From Neocallimastix sp. 'constans' (lineage: Eukaryota), in the NCBI GenBank assembly GCA_050613775.1, contig JBODTK010000011.1:1178001-1242000 (forward strand): a DNA stretch of 64,000 nucleotides. The letters are read 5' to 3'. The translations under genes and the position numbers were made by a program. Positions 10,277 to 54,630 of this stretch are shown one piece after another. Within the stretch, counting starts at the first letter, position 1; every line of letters starts with the position of its first letter. The notes below the pieces were generated by a model. That model was given only the letters and a program-made list of their open reading frames with translations, did no database searches and was not told the DNA's origin.

Positions 10277-10299
10277 CTTGAGTCTTAGCGGGGGCATCG

Positions 10300-11363
10300 T
10301 GATAAAGAATGAAGTAATAAATTGATTCTTATTAAAAACCTTTTAATATAGTCAAGGTGATTTTTAAAATATTAATAAATTTATGTATTCTTTACATTAA
10401 TAATTTTACTATATTATTTGATCTGAAAATTTAAGTTTATACATAAAATTTAATTTAAATTTATGTTCATTCCTTATAAAGGTAAATTAAATTTATGAGA
10501 GTTTAGCAATAACATAGTACTAATTACTTTTAGTATTATTTTTCTAAATAAGGAATAATTCCTGTATATAAACAACTTAAATAACTTTATCAATATTTCT
10601 GTCTTTCGAATTAAGAAATAATTGAAATGAAAGAAATAAATAAAATAAAATTTTCTGTATTTAAAATTGTAAAAGATTTTTCATATATTAATAAATGTAT
10701 TTTATTTTCTATTATGTCATTCAAATTAATATATAAGATTACATATTAAATTAGTATCAAAATTAAGTTAAAGTATTCAATTTTATTGTAATACTGCTTC
10801 TCTTTTTTTTTGTTTAATTCTTATCTATAATGCATCTTTTATATTATAGATTTATTTTGGTTAATTTGAATATTGGGAAATAATAAAATTTCTATTTATT
10901 ACAATAAGGAAATAATCAATAAGATTTAAAAATCTATTGTTTTTCCGTCTCTTCAACCACTTCCAGAGGCTTTGCTACTTTTATATCTTCAAAAAGATAT
11001 AAATTGACTACCTTGGAACCCCTTTTTAGGGGAGAGAGAAAAAAAAAAAAAAAAAAAATAGAAATAATAAAAATAAATAAATAAAAAAAAAAAAAAAAAA
11101 AAGAAAATAAAAATAAATAAAAATAATAATAAAAATAAAATAAAAATAATAATAAAAATAAAATAAAAATAAAATAAATAAATAAAAATAATAATAAAAA
11201 TAAAATAAAAATAAAATAAATAAATAAAAATAATAATAAAAATAAAATAAAAATTAAAATAAAAATATAATAAATAAATAAAAATTATTGTGAAAGAATA
11301 AAATTTTTTTTTTGTGTTTTAATATTATATAATTTTTTTTTTTGAATTCCTCGAACCATAACA
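10300..11363 (+). mobile_element. 3' LTR of element B (family F, TGATAA(A)GAAT...AACCWWAACA)
   Basis: Begins after PPT-like agcgggggcatcg; termini match other F copies (20190-21007, 32071-32590, 36766-37740). Confidence 0.7.
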
Positions 11364-11369
11364 CTTTTT

Positions 11370-12368
11370 TGTAAGAATCTATAATTATTTTTAACAAAAT
11401 AATTATATTTTCTTAGTTAGGTTATAATTAATATAACTTTTATTTAACTCATATTTCATTTATACAATTAATTATAATTAATAATTTATTTAATTATATA
11501 TTAAAATTTTATTTAGTTTAATATTAAAAATTTATTTAATTAAATAATTTTTATACATTTAAAATAATATTAAATTTATTTAATTATTCACTTAATTATT
11601 AAATTTATTAGTTTTAGTTTTCTCTCACTTATTAAATCATAAACTAAAACACTATTCTGTATTTTATCATGTATTCTGTATTCTATCATGTATTCTGTAT
11701 TGTATTAATCATGTATTTTATTATTAATGTATTGTTTTATATTTTTTATGTAAAGTTCTATAAAATAGAACTAAATAGATTAAATTTTAAATTTTATGAT
11801 CGAAATAATTTTCATTATTTTATTCTTTTATTTTCGATCATTATATTAGATTAAGTAATCGGTTAATTAAGGTTTTTCCAATTACTTCTTAAAAGTAATC
11901 GGTTTTACTTAATTAACGCGATGATCGATATGGATAGAATATCGATCAAAAAACTTATCTAGGTTTTTCTTCTAGTCTTTTCCTAGATAAGAGATTTGTT
12001 AAGATTAGAACCCCTTTTGATTTTAACCTTATTTTGACAAAAAAGTATAAATAAGGCTCTTGAGTTCTCTTTGAGAAATCAAGAGTTATTATTATAACAA
12101 TTATAATATAATAATAATAACAATAAGTTTTAACATTTAAAATTTTTAATAAATAATAAAACAAATTATTTTAATAAAACAAATTTTATAATTAAAACTT
12201 TTCCTTATCAATTTTAGTGTTTCGTCTATTATAATTCGTTATAATAAACTCGATAATTAGAAAGAACCATAGGTAAGTATGATTCTTTTTTAAACCTTTA
12301 ATATTAGCAGTTAGAGCTAATATTAATGACTAATAATTTAATTATAATTTTTTAATTAAATTATTACA
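11370..12368 (+). repeat. 5' LTR of element C
   Basis: Direct repeat of 17841-18819 plus a ~19-bp tandem duplication near 11660; TATA gtataaata near 12045. Confidence 0.93.
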
Positions 12369-12380
12369 ATAATAACTCTT
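12369..12380 (+). promoter_or_regulatory. Self-priming PBS of element C
   Basis: ataataactctt is the exact reverse complement of aagagttattat at 12081-12092, just downstream of the LTR TATA box; no TGG-type tRNA PBS. Confidence 0.8.
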
Positions 12381-12754
12381 CTTAGTATAGTTTAATAGAA
12401 TAGTTAATTAATTTAATAATATAATTAATTTCTAGAATCAAGTAGTGCAAAATAATTTAGTGTAGTACAATAAAAATTTTTATGATTAATAATAAATAAA
12501 ATAATATAAATTATATAGAATAATCTAGAAATTAAAAAAATAAATTAATATATAGTAAATAAATTAAATATTAAAATATAAGTAGATAATATTAGTAAAT
12601 CAGATCAAAAATCATTAATTAATAATTTAGTATAGAAATTATAAGAATAAATTAATATAAACCATAAATTAAATATTAAAAAATAAGTAAATAGTAATAA
12701 TTAGTTGGATAAATAATTAAAATCATAAAAAATTAAAAGAATAGATATATAGTA

Positions 12755-13130
12755 ATAAATAATAATAAATAATAATAAATAATAATAAATAATAATAAAT
12801 AATAATAAATAATAATAAATAATAATAAATAATAATAAATAATAATAAATAATAATAAATAATAATAAAATAATAATAAATAATAATAAATAATAATAAA
12901 ATAATAATAAATAATAATAAATAATAATAAATAATAATAAATAATAATAAATAATACTAAATAATACTAAATAATAATAAATAATAATAAATAATAAATA
13001 ATAATAAATAATAATAAATAATAAATAATAATAAATAATAATAAATAATAATAAATAATAATAAATAATAATAAATAATGATAGTAAATAATAAATGATA
13101 AATGATAAATGATAAATGATAAATAATAAA
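12755..13130. repeat. (AATAATAAAT)n low-complexity tandem repeat in the leader of element C
   Basis: Directly visible 10-bp and 7-bp units. Confidence 0.9.
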
Positions 13131-13628
13131 AAATTAAACAACAATAAATAGCAATAATAAAATAAATAATAACAATAATAAGAACACATAAATACACTAA
13201 CATATGTTTACATGATTTTAGGGAAATAGAACTGGAAGAAGTAGGCCAAGGAAACAATATAGAAGAACCAAGACTTAGTACAGACCTTAGAAGCAGAAGT
13301 GTGTTAGCATCTAGGTAACAGTTTCCGGATTAAGTTTATCTGTCACAGGCAGCGATCTGGGCAGCTCTGGACTGGCCTATCCGATGTGTGGTAGGTTGCA
13401 ATCGTGGTGTACGCGGGAACATGACACCAGTAATAGGCAAGCTGCTCCCGTCATTAAGTACATACTACTGTTTAATGCTAACGTGCTTCTGGAAAATCGT
13501 CTGGAAATGCTTGAGTATTTTCTTATTTAACTGTTTTCTTTCGCCAAAACTTCTTAACTATGACCTTATAATCATAATAAACATATATATATATTTCATA
13601 GTTAATATAATTTATAATTTAGGTAAAA

Positions 13629-16600
13629 ATGGAATCCAATAGTAATAACGCCCAAATTCCAAGTGAAGTTGAATCCTCAAAGCTTATAACAGCTTTAACA
13701 GAATTTATTCCTACCTTCTTTTCCGCCAACGGAGTGTTATCCAAGGACTTAGCTGATAACAACAAACATAACGTTAATGAGCTCCTGGAACAGAGTGAAT
13801 TGTTTTTTAAAAAACATCCCAACTCTTTTTCCACGGACGACTTAAAAATTTCTTATGTTATCAGCATGTTACATGGACCTCCAAAGAAATGGGGACTTTC
13901 ATTGAAGGCTGATGGGACTTTAAATTCGTTAAGCTATGACACCTTTAAAGATATTTTGATAAGCAATTTTGGGGATACTAAAGAACAGAAGGATGTTCTT
14001 ATTGAACAACTTCTAAACTTAAAACAACTTCATTTAGGAAGAGCCGCATTATATACTATTGAATTTCGAAGGTTAGCTGGACGTATTGGATGGCCGGACG
14101 ATGTATTCATTGACCTAATCAAAAGAGGTCTTCTTGAGGATGTTAAAACAGAGTTCAATAAATTAGACAAACCTAAAAGTTTATTTGAGGCAACAAATTC
14201 TATTATCAATATTGATAGAAAATGTTTACTTAAGCAAAAAGTAAAGACCAATGACTACAAGCCAAAGAGTAGTAAATCTTTCAAACGAAAAAGAAACGAA
14301 ACTAACATGACCGAAAACAAATTTAAACGCAATAAGCACCATAAGGGACGAGACAATGGAAGTATTTTATCAGCAAATTACACCCCAAGTCATAATAATA
14401 AAATGACTACAACTTTCTTGTTAACCGTTAATAACAAAAAGATTAAAACCAGAATCCTTATTGACTCGGGCTCTGCTAGAAGTTATCTCTGCAAAAGCTT
14501 CGTAACAGCAAACAAAATTCCTTATTCAAACCTCTCAAATACGATCAATGTAAAACTTCCTAATGAAAAGAATATGGCTATAAAACAAGTTACAAAACGT
14601 CTTAAGCTTACTTTCATGGACCATACGGAAACATTTGAATTCTTTATAGCCAATTTACAACTTCAAGACGTATCTGCAATCCTTGGAAGAGATTGGTTAA
14701 GCCTTCATTCACCTTACATTGATTACAAAAATAATAAAATTTACTTCTTGGAAAGCTACTGTAAAAACCATTGCCCTTCTGCTAAGGGTAATAGGTTTGT
14801 TTTCCATTCATCAGATATTACTGCTTCTCTCTTACCCAATAATGTACAGAAGGAAGAAATTCCTCTTGACTCAATAATTCCAGATTCCATACCTGAAGAC
14901 GAACTTAGCGATATGAACATTTGCGCTGCTTTAGTTCACAATAGTGAAATTAAGAATACCAAAAGAAATAAAAAAATAATTAAAAAATATTATTATGACC
15001 TTTGTATTGTATTTGAAAAGAAAGAAGCTGATAAACTCCCTCCACACCGTGTTTATGATATTTCCATTGATATAGTTCCCGGTGCCCAACTTTATTTTGG
15101 ACCAATTTATTCGTTGACTGTTGAAGAAAAGAAGGCACTTCGTGAATACATTAAGGAAAACGTTGCTAAAGGATTCATTAGAAAATCAAAATCTCCTGCT
15201 GGTGCCCCGGTGCTATTTGTTAGAAAACGTGACGGTTCTCTTAGACTTTGTGTTGACTATAGAAAGCTCAATTCTATCACCATTAGAAACAGTTATCCAA
15301 TTCCTAGGATATCTGATTTGATAGAATCGTTTAAAGGTGCTATTATTTTCTCTCGGCTTGACTTAAGATCTGCCTATAACTTAGTTCGTGTCAAGAAAGG
15401 CCATGAATACCTTACTGCTTTTCGTACTCCTTTTGGTCATTTTGAATACCGTGTAATGCCTTTTGGTTTACGTAATGCACCTTCGGTTTTTCAACGCTTC
15501 ATCCAAGACATTTTTTCTGATGATATTGGCTTGTTTCTCTTTGTCTACATAGATGACATTATAATATATTCGAAAAACCTTACTGAACATATTAAACATG
15601 TTCATCATGTCCTTTCCTTGTTAGTCAAAAATGGTCTCTATGTAAAACTAGAAAAATGTGAATTTCACGTTCCTGAAACTACTTTTTTAGGATTTGTTGT
15701 ATCAATAAATGGCCTTTCTATGGATAAAAACAAAGTAAAATCAATTCTTGAATGGCCTACTCCAAAAAACATGAATGAACTTCAAAGTTTCCTTGGACTC
15801 TGTAACTACTATAGGAAATTCGTAAAGAATTTCGCCATAATTATGGAACCCTTAAGAATACTCCTCAAGAAGAATAACGAGTTCAAATGGAATGATGATG
15901 CTGAGAATGCCTTCAAAAAATTAAAACTTGCTTTTACCACAGACGAAATCCTTATCTACCCCGACCCAGAAAAGGAATTCACTGTTGAAACTTATGCCAG
16001 TGATTTTGCTGTGGGTTGCATTCTTTCTCAAATCAGTGACAAGGATAACGAACTTCACCCTGTCGCTTTTCATTCTAGGTCTTTGTCATCTTCTGAATTA
16101 AATTATACAATATATGACAAGGAACTTCTCGCTATTATCACCGCTTTTGAAACCTGGCGTCACCACCTTGAAGGGGCTAAGTTTCCTGTTCAAATCATTA
16201 CCGATTACAGGAATTTATTATATTTTAAAAAGTCTCAACATTTAAACCAACTCCAGATAAGATGGAGCCTCTTTCTTTCTAAGTTTGACTTTAGGATTTC
16301 GTTCAGACCTGGATCAAGGTGTGGTAAACCAGATTCGTTGTCGAGACGTCCGGATTATAAATCCGTGGTTTCCCTCCACAACAAAGACCGTCCTTTATTG
16401 GATGATAATGCCTTTTGTTGTGCAAACACTATTATCAGTAGCTTGATTGATACCCAACCGACTGACAAATTTTGTGGATCAAGGAGTAGTGAACCAGATT
16501 CGTCGTCGAGACGTCCGGATTATAATTCCGTGGTTTCCCTCCACAACAAAGACCGTCCTTTATTGGATGATAATGCCCTATGTTGTGCAAACACTGATAA

Positions 16601-17831
16601 TATTAGTAGTTTGATTGATGCCCAAACGGCTGACATATATTGCAAATCTATTTTAGAAAAGATTAAAACTAAGTCAAACACAGTTAAAAGTTCTTTATTT
16701 TCTTTAAATGAAGGGGTCTTACATTTCCAAAACAGAATCATCGTCCCATCCACTTTAAGAGAGAGCAAGAATTTTGAAATCTTTTCATGACTCACCCACC
16801 AACGGACACCAAGGTATTGACAAAACTCTTGAAAAAATCAAGAGATACTACTGGTGGCCTAATATGAAGAAAGATATTCATAATTATGTACTTTCTTGTT
16901 CAACTTGTGCTAGGTGTAAAATTCGTAGACATAAACCCTACGGAAAAATTCAACCGTTGCCTGTTCCCAATAAACCATGGAAATTATTGGGGTTGATTTT
17001 ATAGTTTCGTTACCTAGTTCACAAGATTGCACATGTATTATGGTGGTTTCGGATCACTTAACAAAGATGATCCATTTAGTTCCTTGCTCCGACGTCCCTT
17101 CCGCTGACCTGACCGCCAAGATGCTCCTTTACAACGTTTTTCGGTATCATGGATTCCCTAAAATCATTGTCTCTGATCGTGGCTCCCAGTTCTCTTCTGA
17201 ATTTTGGACCTCACTCTGCTCAGCTCTAAATACTAAGCCAAGACTCGCTACTGCTCATCACCAACAAACAAATGGTCAAGTCGAAAGGGCTAATTCCGTA
17301 ATCGAACAATATTTACGATGCTACTGTTCTACTGCCCAAAATGAATGGTGCTTTTATCTACCTCTTTGTGAAATGGCTTATAACAACTCATTTCACAAAT
17401 CTATAAACATGTCGCCTTTCTGTGCAAATTATGGTTTTAATCCAGTATGCAATATTGATTCTCCTCCTGTTCTTTTAAAAGATAATGTCTCTGTACTTAC
17501 TAGGGATTGGTCTGCCCATTTTGATGCCCTTAAAAAGCACTTTATCAAAGCTAAAGAAGATTTCAAAAAGTTTGGTGACTCTAGGAAAGCTTCTGGTCCT
17601 ACTTTCCATGTTAACGACATGGTTTGGTTGAAAAGGTATTACTTCTCCAATGAACCTGCAAAAAAGCTTTCTAACCAGTATCTTGGACCCTTTAAGGTCA
17701 TAGAAGTGAGGAAAAGAATGAACTACCGGCTTGAATTACCAGAAAATCTTCATTTACACCCGGTATTTCATATCTCGCAGTTGGAGCCTTATACTGAAAG
17801 AGACATAGGATTAAAGGAACCATCACCATAA
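13629..17831 (+). pseudogene. gag-pol of element C, frameshifted in integrase
   Basis: LIDSGS protease, YIDD RT, RNase H TYAS in place of TDAS; integrase split over 16774-17004 and 16977-17831; ends GPF...HPVFHISQLEPY without a chromodomain. Confidence 0.9.
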
Positions 17832-17840
17832 AGGGAGCAA

Positions 17841-18819
17841 TGTAAGAATCTATAATTATTTTTAACAAAATAATTATATTTTCTTAGTTAGGTTATAATT
17901 AATATAACTTTTATTTAACTCATATTTCATTTATACACCTAATTATAATTAATAATTTATTTAATTATATATTAAAATTTTATTTAGTTTAATATTAAAA
18001 ATTTATTTAATTAAATAATTTTTATACATTTAAAATAATATTAAATTTATTTAATTATTCACTTAATTATTAAATTTATTAGTTTTAGTTTTCTCTCACT
18101 TATTAAATCATAAACTAAAACACTATTCTGTATTCTATCATGTATTCCGTATTGTATTAATCATGTATTTTATTATTAATGTATTGTTTTATATTTTTTA
18201 TGTAAAGTTCTATAAAATAGAACTAAATAGATTAAATTTTAAATTTTATGATCGAAATAATTTTCATTATTTTATTCTTTTATTTTCGATCATTATATTA
18301 GATTAAGTAATCGGTTAATTAAGGTTTTTCCAATTACTTCTTAAAAGTAATCGGTTTTACTTAATTAACGCGATGATCGATATGGATAGAATATCGATCA
18401 AAAAACTTATCTAGGTTTTTCTTCTAGTCTTTTCCTAGATAAGAGATTTGTTAAGATTAGAACCCCTTTTGATTTTAACCTTATTTTGACAAAAAAGTAT
18501 AAATAAGGCTCTTGAGTTCTCTTTGAGAAATCAAGAGTTATTATTATAACAATTATAATATAATAATAATAACAATAGTTTTAACATTTAAAATTTTTAA
18601 TAAATAATAAAACAAATTATTTTAATAAAACAAATTTTATAATTAAAACTTTTCTTTATCAATTTTAGTGTTTCGTCTATTATAATTCGTTATAATAAAC
18701 TCGAAAATTAGAAAGAACCATAGGTAAGTATGATTCTTTTCTAAACCTTTAATATTAGCAGTTAGAGCTAATATTAATGATTAATAATTTAATTATAATT
18801 TTTTAATTAAATTATTACA
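17841..18819 (+). repeat. 3' LTR of element C
   Basis: Direct repeat of 11370-12368, preceded by the PPT. Confidence 0.93.
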
Positions 18820-29899: not shown

Positions 29900-32070
29900 A
29901 AAAAAAATAATATCACGGTACAAATTTTATAAAGTTTAATAATAAACAATTAATAAATTAATAAAAATAAAAATATATTAAAAATATTTTAATAATAATA
30001 AATGTATAATAAACAATGAACAGAAATAATAATTTTTAAAATATTATTAATTATAACATGTAAACAAATTTTAAAATGTATAATTTACTAAATTAATATA
30101 AATATTTCTTAATTTTATTTATTTTAATAATCAGATTTTTATATAGTTTTTACTCATTCTAATCATAAATTAAATATTAATAATAATATTAAATAATTAA
30201 AATAATAATTTAAATTATAAAATTAAAAGATGTATTTAAAATAATTTATAAAATAAATAAAATATATATTAATAAAATTCTTAATCATAAAAACAACTTT
30301 TTTCTAAATTTATTTATTGATATTGGTTATATCACTTTCTGAGCCTATTCAGAATTGAGATATAAACCATAAATATCATTTTTGATAAATAACGAAATTA
30401 TAAAATTAAAATAAATAATAAATAATAAATTCTTATTTAACTTAACCTATTAGAAATCTTGAAATCAATTTAAGAAAATTAATTAAAAGAAATAAATGAA
30501 AATAAAATAATAATAATCTAATTAATTATTAACAATTTTAATTAAAACTAAAACAAATTAATTAATTTTCTTCTAAAATTACAAATAAACAAAATAATAA
30601 ACAAATTTAATAAATTGTAAATAATAAATAAACAAACTTATAAACATTTCAAAATTAAAATTAAATAGTTAAATAATCCTCAAATTACTTTTATTTAAAA
30701 TAATTAATATTTTATTTATTTTATAACAAAACTTTTATAAACAAATTATAATTAAAACTTTTTTATTTTAATACTTTATTTGTAAGTATTTATAACAATT
30801 ATTTATTTTATTGTTTATAAATGTAAATAGTTTAAAATCATTGAAAATATAAAAACATGTAAAATATTTCATATAAATTATTCTTTATTATTAATAATTT
30901 CAATAAATTATTTTATATATTTTATTAGTTTATTAATTGTTAATAATCAAATTTTATTTTTAAAATTTAAATAAATTATGATAAATAATAAATAATTTTA
31001 TTTTATTATTTTATTAGTTTTAATAATCACTTTTCTGTTATTAATTTAAATAAAATTAATTATTAAATAAATAAAGATTAATATTTAAAATAAAAAAATC
31101 TTTTTAATAAAACAATTTGTGTTTAATAATAAAACATATTTATTTTTAAATTTATTAATTTTTTCTTATTTGTTTTAGTATTTATACTTTTATTCACTTC
31201 TACAAAATTTAATTTTTGTAGATTAAGAATAACAGGTATAAATCATTTTTGGTAAAGAACGAATATATAATGGATTATTAATTAGAATTTCAACTTACTT
31301 TAGAATCCATTATATTGTTCTTTACTTAATATTACTTTACTATATTTTCTATACTAAATTATTTTATAAATATATTTTTTTTATATTTTTATTAAAAAGT
31401 TACTAAAATATTATCAATAATTCTATATTTTTATTATTAATATCAATATCTAATATAACCTTAAATTTTATTATTTTATTAAAGTGTTTATTATCAATAT
31501 TAATATTTTATCTTTATTTTCAAATATATTATTATATTATTATTATATTTTATCAATATTAAAATTGTATTCTTTTTAGTATTTTATTTTATTTTTAAAT
31601 TGATTATTTAATTTATAAATATTTTTATTCCCGACAAATAAAATCAAATCTTAATTGATTAATAATAAATATTAAATATATTATAGTTTTTAAATTTATA
31701 TTCTTGATTAAACTAACTTTATTTTTCTGTAAAGCCTTTTTAAATTTTGTTTGTTTCTTTTCGTATATATTAAATAATTTAGTTTTAGTATATGAAAAAT
31801 AATATAAAATTATATAAACAAATTTATTAAAATAAAAATACTTATGAATTAGTTAATTTAAATTAATATAAAATTTGAAGAAATTAGTAATAGTAAATTA
31901 TTTTTTTTTAAATATGATGATAAAATGTAGAAAGGCTTTACATATTTATTTTTTTCAAAAAGTATAAATAAGTGAAGTTTTTCAATAATTAAAATGTAGA
32001 CAGACAAAAACAAAAAAAAAATAAATAATTAAATAAAAATATTTCTAATAAACCCGAACCATAACAATTG

Positions 32071-32590
32071 TGATAAAGAATAAAATAATAATGATATATT
32101 TAACATATATTCTTAATAATTTATTATATAAAAATATATTATTATATTCTTTACTATTAATAATTTTCTTATATTTTATATAATAATTTTTATATTAATT
32201 ATATTTTATAATTTTAAATATTAATTTATGTAATTAATTAATTTATATGATTGGATTTAATAATGTAATTAAATAATATAAAAAATATGTATAATCCATA
32301 TTTATTATGAGGGGGGCCTTTCTGAGGAAAGAATTAGTAGAAATAATAGTGAAAATGAAATAGGAATAATAATTGAAAGGTTTCCCATATTGTTATAAAA
32401 ATAAATATTAATATTAATAAAGTTAGTTTTAACAATAAAATAATTATATAATTTATAAATAAAATATTTTTAATAATAATTCTTTAAATAAAATTCATAA
32501 TGTGTAGTAATAATTTCTTTAGTGTAATTTAGTTAGTTAATTTATCTACTTATTAATGTTCACACTCCTTTTACAATATGAACCTCAACA
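32071..32590 (+). mobile_element. Solo LTR, family F
   Basis: tgataaagaat...aacctcaaca flanked by attg on both sides. Confidence 0.75.
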
Positions 32591-32594
32591 ATTG

Positions 32595-33365
32595 TGTAAA
32601 AGGTAAGTTTATTATTAACAAAAATAACAAATAATAATTAATTTTAAAGACTAACTTAACACCCCTCTATTGGAATTGTTAATAATAAACACTAGAATTA
32701 ATTATAATTATAATTATTTATTATTAAATTTTTATTATTAAATTTTTATTATTAAATTTTTATTATTAAATTTTTATTATTAAATCTAGTCCAATCAAAT
32801 AACTGTTTTAATTGTATAAAAAGAACAAAGTAGTACAATACTTTAGTTCTTTCTCTCTTTTTCTTACAACTACAACTTTATTATTGTATTATTCTTTTGT
32901 TATTTTAGAGTTAAATAATAAATTAAATAGTTAAATTGAAATAAAATTAGTTTAAATAATTAAATAAAATTAGTTTAAATAATTAAATAAAATTAGTTTA
33001 AATAATTAAATTAGAATAGTTAAATAATTAAATTAGAATAGTTCAAATAATAAAATTAGTATAGATTAAATAATAAAAATAAAATAGTTTAGTTTAAATA
33101 AAATTAAATTAAAAATAATTTGAATGTTGTTTTTAAGTGTTTTAAGATTTTATGTTTAATGTTTAGAGTTAATAATTATTGTTGAATAATTAGATTATTT
33201 AGATTAGGTTTGAAATTATTTTTAGTTATTTTAGTATAGTTAAATTATTTAATATTTAGATTTTTAAATTAGAATAATAAATTAGAATAATAAAATAGAA
33301 TATAAAATTTTCTTTAGTTATTAGAATATATTATTTTATTATTAAAACTCTTCAAGACTGTACCA
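32595..33365 (+). mobile_element. Solo LTR, family K (internally deleted)
   Basis: tgtaaaaggt...ctgtacca, same termini as 39711-41090. Confidence 0.8.
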
Positions 33366-33370
33366 TTGTG

Positions 33371-34278
33371 TGTTAGAAATTGAAATAAAAATTCTATTAT
33401 AGCAATTTCTAATCCACAATTTTATTTTAATAATAATATTATTAACTAAAATTGGGAAATTTTAAATTTGTTTTATTAAAAAAATCGAGTTTATTATAAG
33501 AAAATTTAATTTATTTATTTATTTAATTTATTTTATTTTTTTAAAAAAAATAAATAAAAATTATTTTAAAATAAAAAAAAAATAATAATATTATTATTAT
33601 TATTTAAATTATAAAATTTTATTGTTATTATTATTTTTCTTATAATAATAACTCTTAATTTCATAAAAAGAACTTAAGAGTCTCTATTTATACTTTTACA
33701 AAATTTTAAATTAAATATTGTCTAATCTTAACAAATTTCTTATTTAGGAAAAGATTAGAAGAAAAACCTAAATAAGTTTCGATTAATATTCTAAACATAT
33801 TTATCATCGGATCATATATGTAAAATCGATACCAATCAGTATTCGGGAAAACCTTAAAGATCGATTTTCTAATTACTTTTATAATAAATAATTCTAATTA
33901 AATGTCCAAAATGATAAATAAAAAAAATTAAAAATTGAATAAATTTGTTCAAATTTAGAAAAAAAAAATTTTTTTTTTGTTATGAAAAATTTTAAATAAT
34001 TTTTGATTACATCTAAAATGTCCAAAAATTTAAATAATAATTCTAACGAATAAATTATTGAATAATATTAATTAATTATTAATAATTAAGTTTAACTAAT
34101 AATTGGTTAACTACTCCTAATTTTTAAATAATTTTACATGTAATAGTTATTGTACATCGTTACAAAACAAATAACGATAATGTAAAAATAATGTATTTCT
34201 AATTATTAATTTTTAATATATTAATACATAATAAGAAATAATAATTATAATTTAAAATTTTATTATTATTTCTTACAT
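33371..34278 (-). mobile_element. Solo LTR, family S
   Basis: Reverse S motifs aataataactctt and tctaatcttaacaa; TSD ttgtg. Confidence 0.8.
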
Positions 34279-34281
34279 TGT

Positions 34282-35005
34282 GTTAAGGTTTAGGGAATTA
34301 AATAAAAACAATAAGTAAATATACAAATTTTATTTATTTATTTATTTATTTATTATTTTTTTTATTAATTTATTAATTAATTGATTAATTAATTTTATTA
34401 AAATTGGTAGCAAAATTTACAACTATTTATACTTTTTTTAAGGCATAAAAATTGTTCTTGCCACTAAATTTTATATTATTACATTTTTTTTATAAAAACT
34501 ATTAAATTTAAATGTTAATTCTGATACCTTTCTAAGTAGTATCACCTTATGTGTAATATAATTATATGTGAAAAAAAGTTTAAAAGCAAAACACAATAAC
34601 TAATAAGTTACACTTTTGTATGATAAAAATAAAAGATTTTATATTTTATTTATTATTGATTTATTTTATTTATTAATTATATAATATTATAATTTTATTA
34701 TTTAATAATATATTTTTTATTTGATAATATAAAGTATTAATAATATTAGTATTATAGAAAAACTTATTAATTATATTTGTTTTTATGAATAAGAAACCGT
34801 TATTCAATCTATAACTATATATCAACAAGTTTTTCAAAAGTAAAACAAAGATTAAAATATTTAAGAAAATTTTTGATTTAATTTTTGATATTTGAATTTA
34901 AAAATTTATTAAAGTACAAAAATAATAATGTACACATAATATATTAGAAATAAATCATAAATTTAATTAAGAATTAAGAATGCATTATTTAGTACATTCT
35001 TATCA
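34282..35005 (-). mobile_element. Solo LTR, family F
   Basis: Both ends homologous to 20190-21007. Confidence 0.8.
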
Positions 35006-35011
35006 AATGTT

Positions 35012-36762
35012 TGTAATAATCTTACTAAGTACTATTACTTAATATGATTATTAATTTCATCTTAACGACTAATTCATTAAGTTGAGAAAATAAAATAATT
35101 TTATACCTGAATCGACTTTATTATAAACTTAATTATAATAATATCAATGCACAAAAATAGAAGAATGTTTAGATAAAGTTTATTTGTAAAATATTTTTTT
35201 ATTAGAAATTATTTTAATATTTATTTAAAGATAAAAATATAAATTATTATTATTATAAATAGGTTTTTATAATAATAACTCTTGATTTCTTAAAGAGAAC
35301 TCAAGAGCCTTATTTATTATAAAGTGTTTTATGATAAAACAGATTATAATAATACAAAAACACTATTATAAATAAATTCTTTTTTATTAAAAATATTTGG
35401 TTTATTAAAAATCTTTTATTAAATAGTTCTTATTATGTTATGAACTATCAAATTATAAAAAATAACAATTACATTTTTTCAATTAAAGAAAATTTACAAT
35501 ATTTATATTTTTTTCTTAATTATATTCTAATATATTAAATTAATTTAATTTACATATATTCAATTTAAATATTAATAATAATTAATTTTATAAAATAATA
35601 AAATATTTAAACTAAAACTAATTATAGTATAATTTTCTAATTAACTATTTTTTATTATAACTATTTTTTATTATAACTATTTTTTATTATAACTATTTAA
35701 ATATTTTAACTAATTTAAAATTAAACTAAAAACTATTAATAATATTATATTATACTATTTAAATAAATAAAAATTTAACAATAACAGATTTGGCGAATTT
35801 TTTGTAACTAAATTATTTAATTTCATATTTAATAAATATAAATTTAAATAATTTAAGTTCTAATTTATAATTTTAAATTTCAATTATTAATTTAAGGAGA
35901 AATAATTGTTTAAAGTATTTAATTCATGTACGTAAATTTGATGTATGATTTTTCGTTTACATAAATTTATTGAAATACGCTTTAATTCATAAATTAATGT
36001 AAATTACATAATTTTATTCAAGATATCGTGGAAAAAATTTCATACATAAATTAATATAATAATGAATTACATAAATTTATTAAAGATATAAAGATATCTT
36101 TACATTTATATTTTTTTAAGAAAATAAGGTTAAATAAAAAAGGTTTTCTAATCTTAACAAATTTCTTATCTAGAAAAAGACTAGAAGAAAAAACTAGATA
36201 AGTTTCGATCAGTATTCTATTCATATTGATCATCGTATATTATAAGTAAAACCAAATATATTATAATACTTGGATAAAACCTTAAAAAAACGATTTTCTA
36301 TTTTTTAATTTAGATCATCAAATAAAAGGGAAAATAAATAATAACCGAATCTGATCTAAATTAATCTAATTTTCAAAATATCATTAAAATCTAATCTAAG
36401 CTTATAAATATAACACTATCTTTTAAACTAAAATATAAAATTATACAAATATAGAAACTTATTAATTATTTCTTTAAATGTACAATGTAAAAATAAATAA
36501 AAATAATGTTTTACATTAAATTAATAATTAAGTGAATAATTTAAATAAATTGTTAATATTAATAAGTGTATAAATAATAATTATTTAATTAAATCTTCTA
36601 ATATTATTTAAGTGTATGAATAATTATAATATTAATAAATTTGATAATAATATTTCAATGTATGAATTAGTTATAATTTAAATAAATTTATAATTATTAT
36701 CAATAATTATAAAGACTAAGAAATAATAATTATTTATTAGTAAATAATTATTATTTCTTACA
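35012..36762 (-). mobile_element. Solo LTR, family S (subtype S1) with a ~0.75-kb AT-rich insertion
   Basis: Collinear with 48232-49171 except for extra sequence at about 35315-36100. Confidence 0.8.
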
Positions 36763-36765
36763 TGT

Positions 36766-37740
36766 TGATAAAGAATGCTCAAATAATGTTCTTTTTGTTA
36801 TTCATCCTAAATGATTCATTTAACCCACAAATTATTTGATTCTTTGTTCTTTCTTTTGGAACTTTCTATATTCTAATAAATTAATCTATATTCCTGGTTA
36901 GTACAAATTAAATTATACTATTTAAAAGAATATTTAATATTAATTTCTTATCTATGCTACCTTTATTATTCTTATCAATATTTTATTATTATTAAAATCC
37001 TTATCAATATTATATAGTTTATTTTATCAATTTTTTTTAGTTTATCAAAATCTTATCAATATTTCTTTTATTAATATTAAACTTATCAATATTAGTTATT
37101 TCTTTGGAAAATTCCAAATTAAAAAAATTGTATTAATGATTACTAATAAAAATTAAACATAAAAGAAAATAGTTATACTATTATTATATGTTTTATTATA
37201 AATATTATATTATAAATTATAAATTTGATGAAATTATAAATTTTATATTAACAATTTAAATAATAATATTTTTCTAAACATAGTAAAATTAAACTTTAAG
37301 ATTAAATAAATATTACTAAACCACTGAATTAACTTCTGTAAAATAAAAAAAATGTCTTTTAAAGTATATAATTAAGTAGATTAGTAATAAATAATTAGTA
37401 ATAGATTAATATATAAGTATTATTTATTATAAATTAAATAATAATTATATTAATAATAAAAAAATAATATAAAATATTTAATAATAGTTAATTTTCATTA
37501 TACAAAGATATGACTTTACCATTTCTATTATTTTAAGAAAAAGTATAAATAACAGTAAAAAAAAATAGTAATTTTTATATTGTAATTTTCTTAATATTGT
37601 AATTTTTAATAAAAATTTAATAAAAGATTTATAAAATAAAAAATTATAAAATTATTATTTTATTATTTTTCTTTTTCATTAATTTCTTTTTATTGTTTAT
37701 ATTATTACTTATTTTTATTTTCCCTCTCCGAACCTAAACA
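36766..37740 (+). mobile_element. Solo LTR, family F
   Basis: tgataaagaatg...ccgaacctaaaca. Confidence 0.7.
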
Positions 37741-37746
37741 TGTTGT

Positions 37747-38719
37747 TGTAAGAAATATTAATTATTTATTAATAAATAATTAATATTTCTTAGTCTTTAT
37801 AATTATTAATAATAATTATAAATTTATTTAAATTATTAATATTGCATACATTGAAATATTATATCTAACTTTATTAAAAAATATAATTTTTATATATTTA
37901 ATTAATATTTGGAAATTTATTTAAATAATTATTATATATACATTTATTAATATTATCAATTCATTTAGTCATTCATTTAATTATTAATTTAATGTAAACA
38001 TTACTTTTATTTATTTTTTATATTTTTTACATTGTACATTTAAAAGAATAATCAATAGGTTTCTGTATTTTCTATAATTCTATATTTTAGTTTAAAGATA
38101 GTTTTATGTTAATAAGCTTAGATTAGATTGTAATAATAATAATATTTGGAAAATTAGATTAATTTAGATCATTTCGGTTATTATTTATTTTTCCTTTTAT
38201 TTGATGATCTAAATTAAAATTTAAAAAATCGGTATTTTAAGGTTTTATCCAAATATATAATTATATATTTGGTTTTCACTTAAAATATACAATGATCAAT
38301 ATGAATAGAATATCGATCAAAACTTATCTAGTTTTTTCTTCTAATATTTTTCTGGATAAGAGATTTGTTAAGATTAGAAAACCTTTTTTATTTAACCTTA
38401 TTTTCTTAAAAAATATAAATAAGGCTAGTTCTCTTTAAGAAATCAAGAGTTATTATTATAAAAACCTATTTATAATAATAATAATTTATATTTTTATCTT
38501 TAAATAAATAATAAAATAATTTCTAATAAAAATATTTTACAAATAAATTTTATCTAAACATTCTTCTATTTTTGTGCAGTGTTATTATTATAATTAAGTT
38601 TATAATAAACTCGATTCAGGTATAAAATTATTTTACTTTATTTTCTCAACTTAATGAATTAGTCGTTAAGTTGAAATTAATAATGATATTAAATAATAGT
38701 ACTTAGTATGATTATTACA
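37747..38719 (+). mobile_element. Solo LTR, family S (S1)
   Basis: tgtaagaaat...attattaca; TSD gttgt; inverted homolog of 48232-49171. Confidence 0.85.
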
Positions 38720-38721
38720 GT

Positions 38722-39708
38722 TGTAAGAAATCATAATTATTCAATAATGAATGATTAATATTTCTTATAATTAATGAAAAATCATTAATAATTTATAATT
38801 ATTTATAAAATAATAATTATTTTTTAAAAATATTTATTTAAATAATAATCAATATATTCATTGATTTTAACTTATAAATTTATTTAATAGTTATATTTTC
38901 ATATATTGATCTAAATTTATTTACATATTATAATTTATACATTTATATAAATAATATAAAATTTATTTGCTTATTATTACTATTCATTTAAATAGAATTT
39001 TTACAAAAGATTATGTAAATTTGTATTTAATATTTTACCATAAAAATAAAATTATGTATTTTATAATGTATTATAAACTATAAATGTATCTAATCTATCA
39101 TATTATTTAATTTTTTTTTTAAATAAAAAAAAAAAAAATTCTTTTTTTTTTTTTATTAATTCCTATCCTATCATTATTTAATATTTTAATAATTAATTAG
39201 AAAATCGGAAATTAATGTTTTTCCAGCAAATTGATTTTCTTTAATTATACGATGATCAAAATGATTAGAATTTTGATCGAAAAACTATTTAGGTTTTTCT
39301 TCCAATCTTTTCCTAAATAGATTTTTTGTTAAGATTAGAAAATAAATTTATTTAACCGATTGATTTTTTTGAAAAAATATAAATAGGACTATTGAATTCT
39401 CTTTGAGAAATCATTATTATTTTAAGAAAATATAATAAATAATAACTAATAAAATAAATTTTATATTTATATATCAAAAAATTATTATTAATCATAAAAG
39501 CTTTTTTTTTAAAATATTTTCAACTACTATTCTACTATTGATGGTTATTGTTTATTATATTTACTTATAATAAACTCTACGTAATTATTAAGTATAATTT
39601 AAATTTTTTAATTTTTATTATTTCAATTTTAATATTATGTAAAAAATAATATTAAAATTGTAGATAATAGTTATATTAACTAATTTTAGTTTTAGAATAG
39701 CTATTACA
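38722..39708 (+). mobile_element. Solo LTR, family S (S2)
   Basis: tgtaagaaatcat...ctattaca; inverted homolog of 49177-50184. Confidence 0.85.
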
Positions 39709-41097
39709 ATTGTAAAAGGTCGGTTTATTATTAACTAAAATAACGAATAACAATTAATTTAAAGGCTAAGATAATTTAACACCTCTCTATTCGAGTTATT
39801 AAAATAAACACTAAAATTAATTATAATTATCTTTTTGAAATACTTAAGAATATAGCGCAGCACTTTTAACTCTATTCGTTATTAGTTACTGGGCTTATAC
39901 TAAGATATTTTATTTATTTTAATAATTAATTTTTATTTATTAATATTAATATTTATTTATAACAATTTACATTAATAGTAACGCTAGTGCGTTACAGTTA
40001 CAAGTACTGTTATTTTTATACATGCAAATAATTTAAATATTGGTAAAATACTTTAAATTAACATAATTTACTAATCTATTAATAAAACAAATTATAACTA
40101 TATAACTATTAATATAATAACTATAAAAATAATAAAATTTAACGTACGAAATTGAAATAAAGATTTTATTTGATTAGCTGTAATTGCTAACTGTTTATAG
40201 ATACATTACGTAACTAGAGAACTATCATTGGATAGGCTTAATGTTACCATGTATCTGTTACATTTATTTTATGTTACGATACAAATAATATATAAAAAAT
40301 AAGTAAAATTAAATAAACTATTAAGAATAATTAATAAATAAATAATAATAAAATATTAAAGTATTAAAATATATAATGAAATTAAAAAGTGTATAAATAA
40401 CTAAATTATTTAAAATAATGTATTAATTGTATTTATTTAATATTGTAATAGTAAACAATTAGATATTTTATTATAAATAATTAAAATTATATTTATTATT
40501 ATTTTATGTTTTTATTATAAAATTTTTATTATACTTTATTATATTTTTATTATTATCTTATATTAAATATTATATCAAAATTATATTTTATTACATTTTA
40601 TTATTATAATATTATTAATTTTTGTTATTATATTTTATATTTCTATTTTTACTCCAATCAAATAAATGTTTTAAATATATAAAAAGAACAAAGTAACACA
40701 ATACTTTAGTTCTTCCTCTTCTTTCAATTTTATTTTTATACTATTCTTTTAATTTTTCTAGAATGAATTATTAAATATTTTTAATTAGTATAATTAAATA
40801 ATTAAATAAATAAATAAAACTAAATTATTCTCTTATTAAATTGATTAGTTTTTTTTTTTTTTTTTTTTTTTTTTGTGTTTTTATTACGGTTAAGAATAAA
40901 AATAATTTTTGTTTGTTTTAAGATATTCAGATTGTTAGGTAAATTAGTTATATTTTAGAGATAAATTTATTAAATTATTTAAATTATTTACATTAGAATA
41001 GTTAATATAATATTTATTTTTGTTAAAGGAAAATTAAATTTTACTTATTAGAATATATTATTTTTTTATATTATTTTCAATTCTGTACCATAAATCT

Positions 41098-46753: not shown

Positions 46754-46763
46754 TTACTTTCTT

Positions 46764-46845
46764 CGTCACCTGCAGGACTCGAACCTGCGCTCCCAAAGGG
46801 AAATGGCTTAGCAGGCCACCGCGTTAACCACTCCGCCAAAGTGAC
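46764..46845 (-). tRNA. tRNA-Ser(GCT)
   Basis: Cloverleaf: acceptor GTCACTT/AGGTGAC plus G, anticodon arm GTGGC-CTGCTAA-GCCAT, long variable arm TCCC-TTT-GGGA, T arm GCAGG-TTCGAGT-CCTGC; 82 nt. Confidence 0.97.
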
Positions 46846-46861
46846 TATCATAAATTCATTG

Positions 46862-47646
46862 TGTAAGAAATTGATATAAATTTTTATAATTTATTTCTAT
46901 TTCTTATTAATTAATAATTATTTCATAATTATTATTCTTTAAAAAAATTTATTTCATTTAAAAACAATTATACCAATTAATGTATTAATTGTTATATGAA
47001 AAAATGTATTTAATATAACTTCTGTATTATTTCATAGAAAAAATGTATTTAATAATTTCTGCATTATTTTATCCTTCTCTTTTTTATCCTTTTTCTTTTT
47101 AATTCTTTTAGTTATTAAAATCGGTTATTAAAGTTTTTCCGATTAATTATAATTGGTTTTATTTAATAACACGATGATCAATAAGTATAGATTATTGATC
47201 AAAAATCTTTCCAGTTTTTTCTTCTAATCTTTTTCTGGAAAGAATCATTGTTAAGATTAGAAAAATACATTTATTTTTGTAAAAATATAAATAGCTGTTG
47301 ATTTTCGTCTTTAGAAAATCAAGAGTTATTATTTTAAGAAAAATATAATAATAATAAAAGACATTAATATTCCAATTAATATAAAATAGTTATTTTAAAA
47401 TTTGTCAAAAAAATAATAAAATATTTAATAATAAAATAGATTAATAAAGTTCTTTTGATAAAAACATATTTTATTTCTCTTTCATTTAAGGTCTATTATA
47501 TTTTCTTATAATAAGCTCTAATTTTAAAGATAAGTATTAAATTCTTATTTTTATTTTAATTTTTATTTTAATTTTTTTTTAATCTTAATAGTTTAGTTAA
47601 TATTAATTATAAATAATAATCTCTATAATTTATAGAAATTATTACA
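46862..47646 (+). mobile_element. Solo LTR, family S, 16 bp upstream of the tRNA
   Basis: tgtaagaaat...attattaca with S motifs (gttaagattaga, caagagttattatt). Confidence 0.85.
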
Positions 47647-47649
47647 CTG

Positions 47650-48220
47650 TGATAAAGAATGAAAATTAAAAATTAAAAATAATTATAAAACGGAATTTAA
47701 AAATAATAAATAATTAAATTATAATAAAGTAATTAATTTTTAGATTATAAACATTTAAATTATAAAAATATTAAATATTTAAATAATACACAATTAATAA
47801 TAATTAGATTAAAATAATATAAAATAAACAATAATTGTTTATTTAATTATTTATTATTAATAGTTAATTTATTATTTATAAACAGAGTATAAATATAAAA
47901 ATTAATATAAATAGAAATAAAAATTAATAGTTTTAAAAATTGTTCCTAATTAGCCATTATAAAAATTAGATAATATTAATAATAATATTTTAAAATGATT
48001 ATTTTTAATAAATTATAATTTTAATAAAACAAAATGTATTAATGAATCAATAACTAATTGATTTACTTATTTTAAGTTACTCAATAAAATATTAAAATAA
48101 AATTAAAATTACTTTTATCCTTTTTTTTTAATTAACTAGTATATCTAGTTATATTTGAACATGAGAATAAAGACTTTTAGTAAGAAATTACTAAATTAAC
48201 TTTATTTTCAATCTGTATCA
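47650..48220 (+). mobile_element. Solo LTR with an F-like start and a G-like end
   Basis: tgataaagaatg...caatctgtatca. Confidence 0.6.
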
Positions 48221-48231
48221 TAAATTCTGTA

Positions 48232-49171
48232 TGTAATAATCATACTAAGTTCTATCACTAAATATGATTATTAACTTCAACTTAATGACTAATTCATTAA
48301 GTTGAGAAATAAAATAAAAATAAAAATTTTACCTAAAAACGAGTTTATTATAAAATTAATTATAATAACAACACAAAAAGTAAAAGAAGGAATATTTGAA
48401 TAAATTTGGTTTAAAAAATATGTTTTTGAATAAAATGTTTTATTAATTTATTAAAGTTTAAAATATAAAATTGTTATTATTATAACTATATTTTTATAAT
48501 AATAACTCTTGATTTCTTAAAGAGAAATCAAGAGCCCTTTTTATATTTTTTTATTAAATTAAGGTTAAATAAAAAGTTTTAAAAATTATCTTATCTAGAA
48601 AAAGATTAGAAGAAAAAACTAGATAAGTTTTGATCGATATTCTATTCATATAGATCATCGTATATATTAAGTAAAACCAAATATATTATTTTATATTTGG
48701 ATAAAACCTTAATATATCGATTTTCTAAATTTTAATTTAGATCATCAAATAAAATGAAAAATAAATAATAACCGGAATGATCTAAATTATTCTATTTTTC
48801 TAAATATTATTTTTAAAATCTAATCTAAACTTATTAACATAAAACTATCTTTAAAAAATACAGAAACTTATTAATTGTTCTTTTAAATGTACAATGTACA
48901 AAATAAATAAAACTAATGTTTACATTAACTTGATAATTAAATGAATAACTAAATAAAATTAATAATATTAATAAAAGAATATATAATAGTTATTTAAATA
49001 AATTTTTTAATATTATTTTAGTGTATGAATAATTATATTTTTAATAAATTTGATAATAATATTTCAATGTATGAATTAATTATAATTTAAATAAATTTAT
49101 AATTATTATCAATAATTATAAAGACTAAGAAATAGTAATTATTTATTAATAAATAATTATTATTTCTTACA
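48232..49171 (-). mobile_element. Solo LTR, family S (S1)
   Basis: Inverted homolog of 37747-38719; flanks ctgta / ctcta. Confidence 0.85.
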
Positions 49172-49176
49172 CTCTA

Positions 49177-50184
49177 TGTAATAGCTATACTAAAACTAAA
49201 ATTAATTAATATAACTATTATCTACAACTTTAATATTATTTTTACATAATATAAAAATTGAGAAAAAAAAATTAAAAAAAAATAAAAATTATACTTAATT
49301 ATGTGGAGTTTATTATAAGTAAATATAATAAACAATAACTCAGTAGGTAAATTAGTAGTTGGAAATATTTAAAAAAAGCTTTTATGATTAATAATATTTT
49401 TTTTTGATATATAAATTTAAAATTTATTTTATTTGTTATTATTTATTATATTTTCTTAAAATAATAACTCTTGATTTCTCAAAGAGAATTCAAGAGTCCT
49501 ATTTATATTTTTTAAAAAATTAATCGGTTAAATAAATTTATTTTCTAATCTTAACAAAAAATCTATTTAGGAAAAGATTAGAAGAAAAACCTAAATAGTT
49601 TTTCGATCAATATTCTAATCATATTGATCATCGTATAATTAAAGAAAACCTATTTGTTAGGAAAAACATTAATTACCGATTTTCTAATTAATTATAAAAT
49701 ATTAAATATTGATAGGATAGGAATTAATAAAAAAAAAGATTTTTTTTTTTTTTTTTTTATTTAAAAAATAAAGATTAAATAATATGATAGATTAGATACA
49801 TTTATAGTTTATAATACATTATAAAATACATAATTCATTTTAATTAAAATAACTAATATTTTTATGGTAAAATATTAAATACAAATTTACATAATTTTTT
49901 GTAAAAATTCTATTTAAATGAATAATAATAATAAGTAAATAAATTTTATATTATTTATATAAATGTATAAATTATAATATGCAAATAAATTTAAATCAAT
50001 ATATGAAAATATAACTATTAAATAAATTTATAAGTTAAAATCAATGAATATATTAATTATTATTTAAATAAATAATTATTTAAAAATAATTATTATTTTA
50101 TAAATAATTATAAATTATTAATTATTTTTCATTAATTATAAGAAATATTAATTATTCATTATTGAATAATTATGATTTCTTACA
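49177..50184 (-). mobile_element. Solo LTR, family S (S2)
   Basis: Inverted homolog of 38722-39708; flanks ctcta / ctgta. Confidence 0.85.
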
Positions 50185-50185
50185 C

Positions 50186-50741
50186 TGTAAAAGGTACGTT
50201 TATTATTAACTAAAATAACGAATAATAACTAAATCTAAAGGCTAAGATAACTTAACACCTCTCTATTCGAGTTGTTAATAATAAACACTAAATTAATTAA
50301 TTCAATAACTATTATTTCTTATTACACTAGAATATAGCGCAGCACTTTATAACTTTATTTGTTATCAGTTGCTGGGCTTACACTGAGTAATATATTTTAT
50401 TTAATAATAATATTTTACTTATTAATATTAATATTTTTATCAACAATTTACGTTAATAGTAACGCTAGTGCGTTACAGTTACAAGTTCAATTATTATTTA
50501 TACATGTCAATAATATTATGATTGGTAAATAATTTAATTTATCTTAGTTTACTAATCACTAAATAAAATATATTTAAATAAGTATTTAACTATATAATTA
50601 ATTATAAAATAATAAAATTTAATGTACGAAATTAACAAAAGATTTTATTTGATTAGCCAAAATTGCTAGCTGTTTAGAGATACGTTACGTAACCAAAGAG
50701 CTATCATTGGATAGGCTTGAAGTTACCATGTATCTGTTACA
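50186..50741 (+). mobile_element. Short family K LTR
   Basis: Matches 39711-40262; ends tgttaca. Confidence 0.8.
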
Positions 50742-50751
50742 AATTCCTTTG

Positions 50752-51941
50752 TGTAAGAATCTATAATTATTTTTAACAAAATAATTATATTTTCTTAGTT
50801 TGTTAAAATTAAGATATAAAATAGTTTATGATTAATAACGTTACTAGGTTAATATGTTGAATTATATATTAATAGTCCAACAATAATTAATTAATAATAA
50901 TATAATTAAAATAATATAAGATAAATAGTTAAGTTATTTAAACACTTAATATCTAAGAATATTTTTAAATAATAATTTCTTTGAAGGATTTATGAAAATA
51001 TTTATTTATTGAATTATTAGTATATAATTATTGCAAACACAATAACCTTACAAAGAACATAAAAGATAGATTTTTACATCTTTCTTTTATACTTTGTAAG
51101 TTACATAATAATAGTATTTAATTTTAAGATATTAATAATATAGTAAAATGAATATTAATAAAATATTAAAATAATAACAATATCGATATGTTTAAAATAT
51201 TTAATATAATTAAATAAATTTAATTTGTATAATTAATTTGAATAATTAAATATAGTAATTAATATATATGATATAAACATATATATAAACATAATATAAA
51301 TAAATACATGTGACGTCATATGTAAATAATTGAAATTATTAATATAAATCTTATTTATTAATATTTTCAGAATTATTAGGCCTAAGATAATTCTTTAAAT
51401 ATTAAATAAGAATTTATATTAATTATTAATTAAATGTATATTGAAATGTGAATAACTGAAATTGAGATTTCAAATCAGTTATAATTTCAACATTGTTAGG
51501 TTATAATTAATATAACTTTTATTTAACTCATATTTCATTTATACACCTAATTATAATTAATAATTTATTTAATTATATATTAAAATTTTATTTAGTTTAA
51601 TATTAAAAATTTATTTAATCAAATAATTTTTATACATTTAAAATAATATTAAATTTATTTAATTATTCACTTAATTATTAAATTTATTAGTTTTAGTTTT
51701 CTCTCACTTATTAAATCATAAACTAAAACACTATTCTGTATTCTATCATGTATTCCGTATTGTATTAATCATGTATTTTATTATTAATGTATTGTTTTAT
51801 ATTTTTTATATTGAAAAATATTTTATTTTATTAAAAACCTTTATATTAGAATAGTATTTTTATTTTTATTTGAATATTTTAACAGATTGTAATAAAAATT
51901 ATAGCCAATTAAATAAATTCTTATTAGTAATATTTTAGATA

Positions 51942-54583: not shown

Positions 54584-54630
<47 letters not shown>

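Follow-up and report, generated by a model that had tools for sequence, protein, structure and literature searches.

The tRNA-Ser(GCT) gene and the LTR array upstream of it

The window, as we call the whole stretch of DNA analysed here, is 64,000 nucleotides long and comes from Neocallimastix sp. 'constans' (GCA_050613775.1, contig JBODTK010000011.1, positions 1,178,001 to 1,242,000). It is very AT-rich, with a non-coding G+C of ~0.09-0.2, and shows retroelement remains; among the 13 ORFs scanned, Pfam matches were to parts of Ty3/gypsy retrotransposons only, and no recognisable host protein gene was found. Homologs of the window proteins include Orpinomyces-labelled proteins (P0092, P0227) and many unnamed metagenome proteins, and the stretch is present in animal feces metagenomes.

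ARAGORN and Rfam identify a sole tRNA gene in the window, an intact tRNA-Ser(GCT) whose A and B boxes are perfect and which is followed after 10 nt by a T6 terminator. Of 45 relaxed ARAGORN calls (introns allowed), Rfam supported none but the Ser gene, and none was taken as a hidden tRNA of another LTR chain. Positions -16 to -14 of the 5' flank, read on the tRNA strand, form a CAA start-like motif; the Ty3 cut coincides with a CAA start motif, according to the accessible part of PMC6673722. Contig depth at the gene (46720-46873) exceeds the depth at single joints at least 100-fold in two runs. This hints that the tRNA gene has very many copies, although depth is no copy number. The only other perfect A box/B box pairs in the window lie in both LTRs of the young element U (53533-53585 and 59502-59554), where a perfect A box and B box stand 43 nt apart and Rfam calls no tRNA; a Pol III promoter inside this LTR could act as promoter, insulator or landing site.

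Upstream of the tRNA gene, six LTRs stand end to end, in outward order X, L, S1, S2, K and R:

46764..46845, minus strand: tRNA-Ser(GCT) gene, intact (ARAGORN and Rfam)
46846..46861: tRNA 5' flank, -1 to -16 (tatcataaattcattg)
46862..47646, plus strand: LTR X, solo, R/S superfamily by similarity to R, S1 and S2
47647..47649: spacer ctg, between X and L
47650..48220, plus strand: LTR L, 571 bp, inverted termini TGATAAAG..CTGTATCA
48221..48231: fossil spacer taaattctgta, made up of flank -6 to -12 and the four bases that open K
48232..49171, minus strand: LTR S1, solo, R/S superfamily
49172..49176: spacer ctcta, equal to the duplication ctgta with one change
49177..50184, minus strand: LTR S2, solo, R/S superfamily, inserted 4 bp inside the left end of K
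50185..50185: spacer c, equal to flank -12
50186..50741, strand not assigned: LTR K, solo, 556 bp, duplication aattc
50742..50751: fossil spacer aattcctttg, made up of flank -8 to -12 and a presumably older -13 to -17
50752..51809, plus strand: LTR R, 5' part

The start of LTR X, 16 bp from the tRNA, is seen directly, and its boundary is confirmed by a run-X18 contig that begins fitting exactly at 46862 with a purine-rich tract before it; the duplication around X is imperfect (cattg / ctgtg, 3/5). At the L boundary, 47650, the fit of contigs begins in three of four runs. L shares its start word with the 3' LTR of the M element at 10300 and its end with the LTRs at 20185 and 26501; from these termini alone it is putatively placed in the M/T/W lineage. 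X, S1, S2 and R form one LTR superfamily, defined by a full-length element at 11370-18819, relative to which X and R are sense and S1 and S2 antisense. K has two further full copies in the window, at 27982 and 39711. Internal parts of the K and L elements were not found in the window, both being solo LTRs. The outermost LTR, R, is interrupted by LTR N (50801-51492; duplication tagtt/ttgtt) and fused by deletion to an M'-type LTR (51793-51809).

Spacers between the LTRs repeat the tRNA flank

The initial annotation proposed that the spacers are fossil copies of the sequence upstream of the tRNA, and every position on which it built is correct: taaattc at 46851-46857, taaattctgta at 48221-48231, ctcta at 49172-49176, ctgta at 50185-50189 (the spacer c and the first four bases of K) and aattcctttg at 50742-50751. 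The match at 48221 comprises 7 nt within the spacer, and 12 nt (tatcataaattc, 46846-46857 = 48217-48228) when the last five bases of L are counted. The 12-mer occurs nowhere else in the window, on either strand; its extra five nucleotides are the L terminus that also ends the LTRs at 20185 and 26501. A match of at least 7 nt between a random AT-rich 16-mer and any of the five spacers was obtained in 69 of 6000 draws, and taaattc arises in 0.9% of shuffled tRNA flanks; by itself the 7-nt match is modest evidence, at ~1% by chance. A 12-nt match to any junction, extended by 8 nt on either side, was reached in none of 6000 draws (maximum 10). Compared with the 19 other LTR-LTR spacers of the window, the tRNA flank has no match longer than 4 nt.

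A second line of evidence is obtained by peeling the insertions off in silico. The array is rebuilt from its outer end, each new element duplicates 5 bp, and the next spacer is scored against the predicted tail; in the null, spacer letters are redrawn from the pool of all spacers. For K, S2 and S1, 13 of 15 spacer bases are predicted (null 6e-5), the single change from ctgta to ctcta being counted twice in this score, and the mirror order predicts only 9 of 20. This part of the peel is internally consistent without using the tRNA sequence. It returns exactly the duplication aattc that had been suggested for K, which flanks K on both sides after peeling, and likewise the target ctgta (one copy ctcta) suggested for S2 and S1. 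With S1, S2 and K removed, tatcataaattc-ctttg-R remains, close to the present tatcataaattc-attg-X.

The initial annotation had also allowed that such short, AT-rich motifs might agree by chance, and this caution holds for the 7-nt match alone but is opposed by both the K/S peel and the 12-nt match. A related reading takes the letters after L as the leader of the L element itself: behind a related LTR end at 41090 stand taaatct and a primer site, and this leader has 5 nt in common with the spacer. At 20185 and 26501, however, other letters follow the same L-type end, the repeats aattc on both sides of K and ctgta around S1 and S2 are independent of the tRNA, and the register places S1 and S2 at the very 16 bp seen for X. 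Chance or an L leader is thus a highly improbable source of these letters, and for the K/S peel the chance reading is already largely refuted. That the spacers between the LTRs repeat letters from upstream of the tRNA-Ser gene is confirmed, and more strongly than first proposed.

Proposed insertion order and distances from the tRNA

The distances to the mature tRNA implied by the peel are 17 bases for R, 12 for K, 16 for S2, 16 for S1 and 14 for L, beside the 16 observed directly for X. The suggestion that the LTRs originally lay about 12-16 bp from the tRNA is borne out for K at 12 and S1 and S2 at 16; X, a relative of S1 and S2, provides an independent check, being at 16 today. The four R/S/X relatives are placed at 16, 16, 16 and 17, which supports, at this one tRNA locus, the view that these LTRs would share the 16-17 offset known for Ty3.

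Given the element boundaries, the spacer letters, the position of X and the consistent K/S2/S1 peel, all shown above, we consider it probable that the stack grew by repeated integration of Ty3/gypsy elements of several families at the Pol III start site of this tRNA. Each new element would land 12-17 bp from the tRNA, pushing the older ones outward and leaving a duplicated piece of the flank as a spacer, and full elements would later collapse to solo LTRs by LTR-LTR recombination. The order, oldest first, would be R (at 17, ctttg), K (at 12, aattc), S2 (at 16, ctgta, 4 bp into K), S1 (at 16, the same cut), L (at 14) and X (at 16, 2 bp into L). The ruler would be TFIIIB bound at the tRNA gene, by analogy with Ty3.

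The proposed regeneration of an empty site, one duplication at a time, succeeds for K, S2 and S1 with 5-bp duplications, but not for X and L, which the initial annotation had omitted. With plain 5-bp duplications, L scores 0/3, the final flank 4/7 and the whole array 17/25 (null 0.002). L would have to be irregular, its rebuilt state having a 9-bp repeat, taaattctg, on both sides; a 9-bp duplication, of atypical length and picked post hoc after the data had been seen, predicts the spacer ctg exactly and raises the whole array to 25/29, the remaining misses being two bases of the left duplication of X. Most simply, the integrase would have joined one end of L at -14, and the other end would have been repaired on the 5-nt match between the L terminus and flank -1 to -5. 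Tying the inner spacers to this tRNA needs either an irregular L event and two changes in the left duplication of X, or a fusion in which another copy of the tRNA locus took part and was lost.

Such a fusion is the closest rival, since it keeps the targeting and changes only the origin of the inner stack. S1, S2, K and R would have inserted at a second tRNA-Ser copy (paralog or allele) that had an identical flank. Through the 5-nt match (tatca), a deletion or recombination event would then have removed that tRNA and joined its stack to tRNA-X-L. This would explain why the 12-nt match starts exactly at -1 and why the duplications of L and X are broken. Deletion-type fusions are known in these chains (R/M' at 51793-51809; a K/W hybrid at 32595-33365), the depth over the tRNA, far above that of single joints, suggests many copies (though depth, again, is not copy number), and the chain at 11364, 18820 and 20186 has spacers starting with cttt, like the rebuilt -13 to -16. 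Against this, a fusion requires a second gene sharing the flank as well as an additional deletion, and the two mismatches of X stay. Moreover, ctg, the spacer left of L, is in register with the K-derived flank and continues it, a match that comes free if all insertions occurred at a single locus. We regard a two-locus origin as unlikely.

Under growth at the single locus, the predicted ages can be compared with sequence divergence. R, predicted to be the oldest, is identical to the LTR at 17841 at 360 of 361 positions, whereas the duplications of S1, N and X carry one, one and two changes; the copy at 50752 differs from the 3' LTR at 17841 by one change and from the 5' LTR at 11370 by four changes and one gap. 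If R is the oldest, then either all later insertions are recent or R has been homogenised. X is nearly identical to contigs of its family, yet its duplication has two mismatches. Over 46720-49000, the places listed at which contigs differ number 4 for X, 6 for L and 22 for S1, an order consistent with nearer elements being younger, although the S1 differences may represent subfamilies.

Element families and their integrases

Two elements of the window represent the Ty3/gypsy lineages concerned:

11370..18819, plus strand: full-length R element, defining the R/S/X superfamily
5076..11363, plus strand: M element (gag, pol and 3' LTR at 10300-11363), a second Ty3/gypsy lineage, no chromodomain

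The R element encodes Gag-PR-RT-RH-integrase, and Pfam finds protease, RT, RNase H and integrase in this order over 13629-17831. In the pol of M (6167-10276), Pfam matches RT, RNase H and integrase, with no protease match; the 3' LTR of M abuts the R element over 6 bp. Purine tracts precede the 3' LTRs at 10300 and 17841, and 5-bp duplications are found for K, S2, S1, U and V. In pol order, TG..CA ends, purine tract and duplications of 4-6 bp, these elements fit Ty3/gypsy (Metaviridae).

The R integrase stops 12 aa after its SH3-like domain and has no chromodomain, so that the C-terminal integrase chromodomain by which chromoviruses are recognised is absent; the M integrase likewise ends just after the GPY/F region. 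Among 16 relatives of R (at least 70% identity, reaching the SH3-like domain), none has PF00385. A quick tree built on 52 of 53 rows, with P0035 left out and neither Ty3 nor DGLT-A among them, places R as sister to the chromodomain-bearing U clade (SH-aLRT 99) and M in a separate lineage (support 99). For both integrase lineages, Ty3 is the best match among solved structures: the alignment of R extends to Ty3 residue 1447 of 1547, with 9 more residues before R ends, and that of M to residue 1438, with 11 more before M ends. Ty3 itself continues for ~100 residues past the aligned part, and uses a vestigial chromodomain after its C-terminal domain as a ruler, as described in the accessible text of a preprint (bioRxiv 2021.07.27.453949); the R and M integrases, ending after 9-11 residues, are without this ruler part. 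By this comparison the array elements would work like Ty3 but are not Ty3.

U, which keeps its chromodomain, stands outside all chains, nested in another element and flanked by a clean ccatt duplication. Element V (52322-62397) has an LTR pair with 99.7% identity and the duplication aataa, and contains one short ORF without a Pfam match, split by the U insertion; it looks like a non-autonomous LTR element. Short-repeat arrays occur in the 5' leaders of M (4560-4790, five tggtcga..ttcga units) and U (54146-54353, five or six 40-bp units), and an inverted pair of 96% identical AT-rich repeats (22994-23675 and 63304-63991) stands 40 kb apart.

Junctions elsewhere in the window

By eye and motif (an LTR end CA with the next TG within 13 nt), 24 abutting junctions were collected; all have the form CA-spacer-TG, on which basis they were chosen. 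If a fixed landmark resets the distance at each event, the mean spacer must equal the duplication length, and the mean found is 5.08 nt. Landing nearer the gene predicts for a family a long spacer towards its older neighbour and a short one towards its younger neighbour, as seen at the three intact copies of K (10/1, 9/2 and 13/0; 3 in 1,000,000 permutations, post hoc). That the two K-W junctions are one duplicated block was considered and dropped, K27982 being no closer to K39711 (689) than to K50186 (777); their independence is assumed, not proven.

A second chain gives a comparison away from the tRNA:

32066..40272: second chain, 10 end-to-end junctions, no tRNA in view

It peels in the same direction, with 10 of 10 bases predicted over its first four junctions (null 2e-5). 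Over the whole chain, 21/35 bases are predicted at 5 bp (null 0.0095; mirror 18/40), and 25/35 when M-type elements are given 4-bp duplications (mirror 16/36); at four of the nine predicted junctions the fit is poor with both lengths of duplication. Since the flank word here is tttat instead of aattc, this chain grew at another site. At junction 25702/25707, inspection found no fit. In both tested chains, every junction that can be decided has the same chromosomal polarity, irrespective of whether a 5' or a 3' LTR end was cut.

Nineteen of the 24 junctions lie outside the tRNA array with no tRNA gene in view, one of them (52266/52271) in the deleted continuation of the array, and many insertions cut 2-5 bp inside the TG end of the older LTR. 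Both observations would be expected if the integrases aimed at existing LTR ends or short TG-rich words, the proximity of the tRNA being incidental. Yet this fails on the one-way polarity, on the equality of mean spacer and duplication length and on the compensating spacers of K. Moreover, no intact outer end of a youngest element was found in the window for the tRNA-less chains, whose tRNA genes may have been cut away by deletion, in keeping with the two deletion-type fusions above, and the one chain with an intact outer end has a tRNA at 16 bp. Targeting of LTR ends is accordingly improbable, rather more so than a second locus.

LTRs N (50801) and V (52322), which are weakly related, sit 49 and 51 bp inside the left ends of the older LTRs R and Z. 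If integration is measured from the tRNA, these positions would correspond to ~66 bp upstream of it, a possible second offset class; a third, truncated copy of N (29328-29899) is without such placement. Four spacers begin or end with cttt(t/g) (11364-11369, 18820-18827, 20186-20189 and 50747-50751), and R50752 and R18819 both stand beside ctttg. These spacers may derive either from a paralogous tRNA flank or from two halves of one R insertion split by rearrangement.

Searches for further loci

The LTR core pattern had no match in viral and metagenome contigs, the R integrase, the R polyprotein and the relative P0006 gave no confirmed locus in viral and prokaryote contigs, and the exact tRNA pattern had no match in prokaryote genomes. 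In metagenome contigs, the tRNA-Ser pattern occurs at 116 loci, of which only L115 (626 nt) has the identical gene (82/82) in AT-rich DNA and is plausibly gut-fungal. On this contig (L115:227-382), a tRNA-iMet, its identity read from the sequence, is followed 2-3 nt on by the identical tRNA-Ser(GCT), forming a dimeric tRNA gene. Upstream of the tRNA-iMet, at 14 nt, begins TGATACG, a terminal word of the L/Z type, and alignment to the LTRs of the window is marginal; for comparison, 2.2% of AT-rich control positions and 2 of 90 other Ser flanks have such a 7-mer at a distance of 10-20 nt. The word is a weak hint of an LTR-type end at this tRNA.

In contigs of four runs over 46720-49000, no empty-site joint was found among the 15 joints listed of 87, and no loose contig end at 48220 among the 24 listed of 1451.

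Comparison with known Pol III-targeting elements

Targeting of this kind is known from Ty3, Tyl3/Tyl6, Tj1, Tca8 and DGLT-A, and by analogy the mechanism proposed here would be of the same kind. Ty3-type elements insert 15-17 bp from the mature tRNA (PMC5014426; PMC5911963 Table 1, both in their accessible parts); here, at one tRNA locus, X is seen directly at 16, and peeling places S1 and S2 at 16, R at 17, L at 14 and K at 12. Ty3/sigma of Saccharomyces cerevisiae shares the 5-bp duplication, the 15-17 bp distance, the occurrence of both orientations and the PR-RT-RH-IN order; unlike Ty3, several families here share one site, stacked at least six deep over 5 kb. In Yarrowia lipolytica, the available text of PMC5014426 describes Tyl3, Tyl6 and tDNA-associated LTRs as likewise chromodomain-less Ty3/gypsy elements at Pol III start sites, with several families in one genome and a 5-bp duplication; this ascomycete yeast differs in having few copies, and that text contains no deep multi-family stack. 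Tj1 of Schizosaccharomyces japonicus was one family of ten tested and has a 244-bp LTR (PMC4600332, accessible part), compared with LTRs of 550-1060 bp and at least two lineages here. DGLT-A of Dictyostelium inserts ~15 bp (13-33) upstream of the mature tRNA in either orientation, which the accessible parts of PMC5006619 and PMC5911963 read as an adaptation to compact, gene-dense genomes; the host there is an amoeba, and the present window, by contrast, shows retroelement remains.

Those same parts of PMC5911963 and PMC5006619 list Pol III start-site targeting for budding yeasts, fission yeast and Dictyostelium, and explain it as protection of compact genomes. A search of the open literature found no report of tRNA-targeted LTR elements in anaerobic gut fungi. 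The novelty lies in the host lineage, in the use of a single site by several families from two lineages that lack the ruler domain of Ty3, and in a stack of sufficient depth to be read as an ordered record.

Implications for the genomes of anaerobic gut fungi

Taken together, the observations can be read more broadly, although we advance this wider reading tentatively and with less confidence than the account of the single stack. Gut fungi would have at least two distinct Ty3/gypsy lineages. One would have branched from the chromoviruses and lost the chromodomain, the other would come from outside that group, and both would have converged on the Pol III start without the chromodomain ruler of Ty3. 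The families would have their own offsets (K 12, L/M ~14, R/S/X 16-17 and perhaps N/V ~66) and would build stacks of 5-10 kb or more, in which the spacers form an ordered log of insertions. Stacks anchored at tRNA genes, and afterwards rearranged by recombination, would make up much of the repeat content of these genomes.

Spacer arithmetic of this kind offers a means of ordering insertions and measuring the offset of each family from sequence alone. Intact elements could also provide a tool for integration at safe sites in these fungi, for which gene-insertion protocols were reported to be absent in 2018 (PMC5796279, accessible part). If the reading is true, Pol III targeting would occur in an early-diverging fungus, in a repeat-packed region and in two lineages without a ruler domain, adding independent origins to those known; the elements would offer natural integrases for asking which surface reads TFIIIB, and the explanation of Pol III targeting by genome compactness would be called into question.
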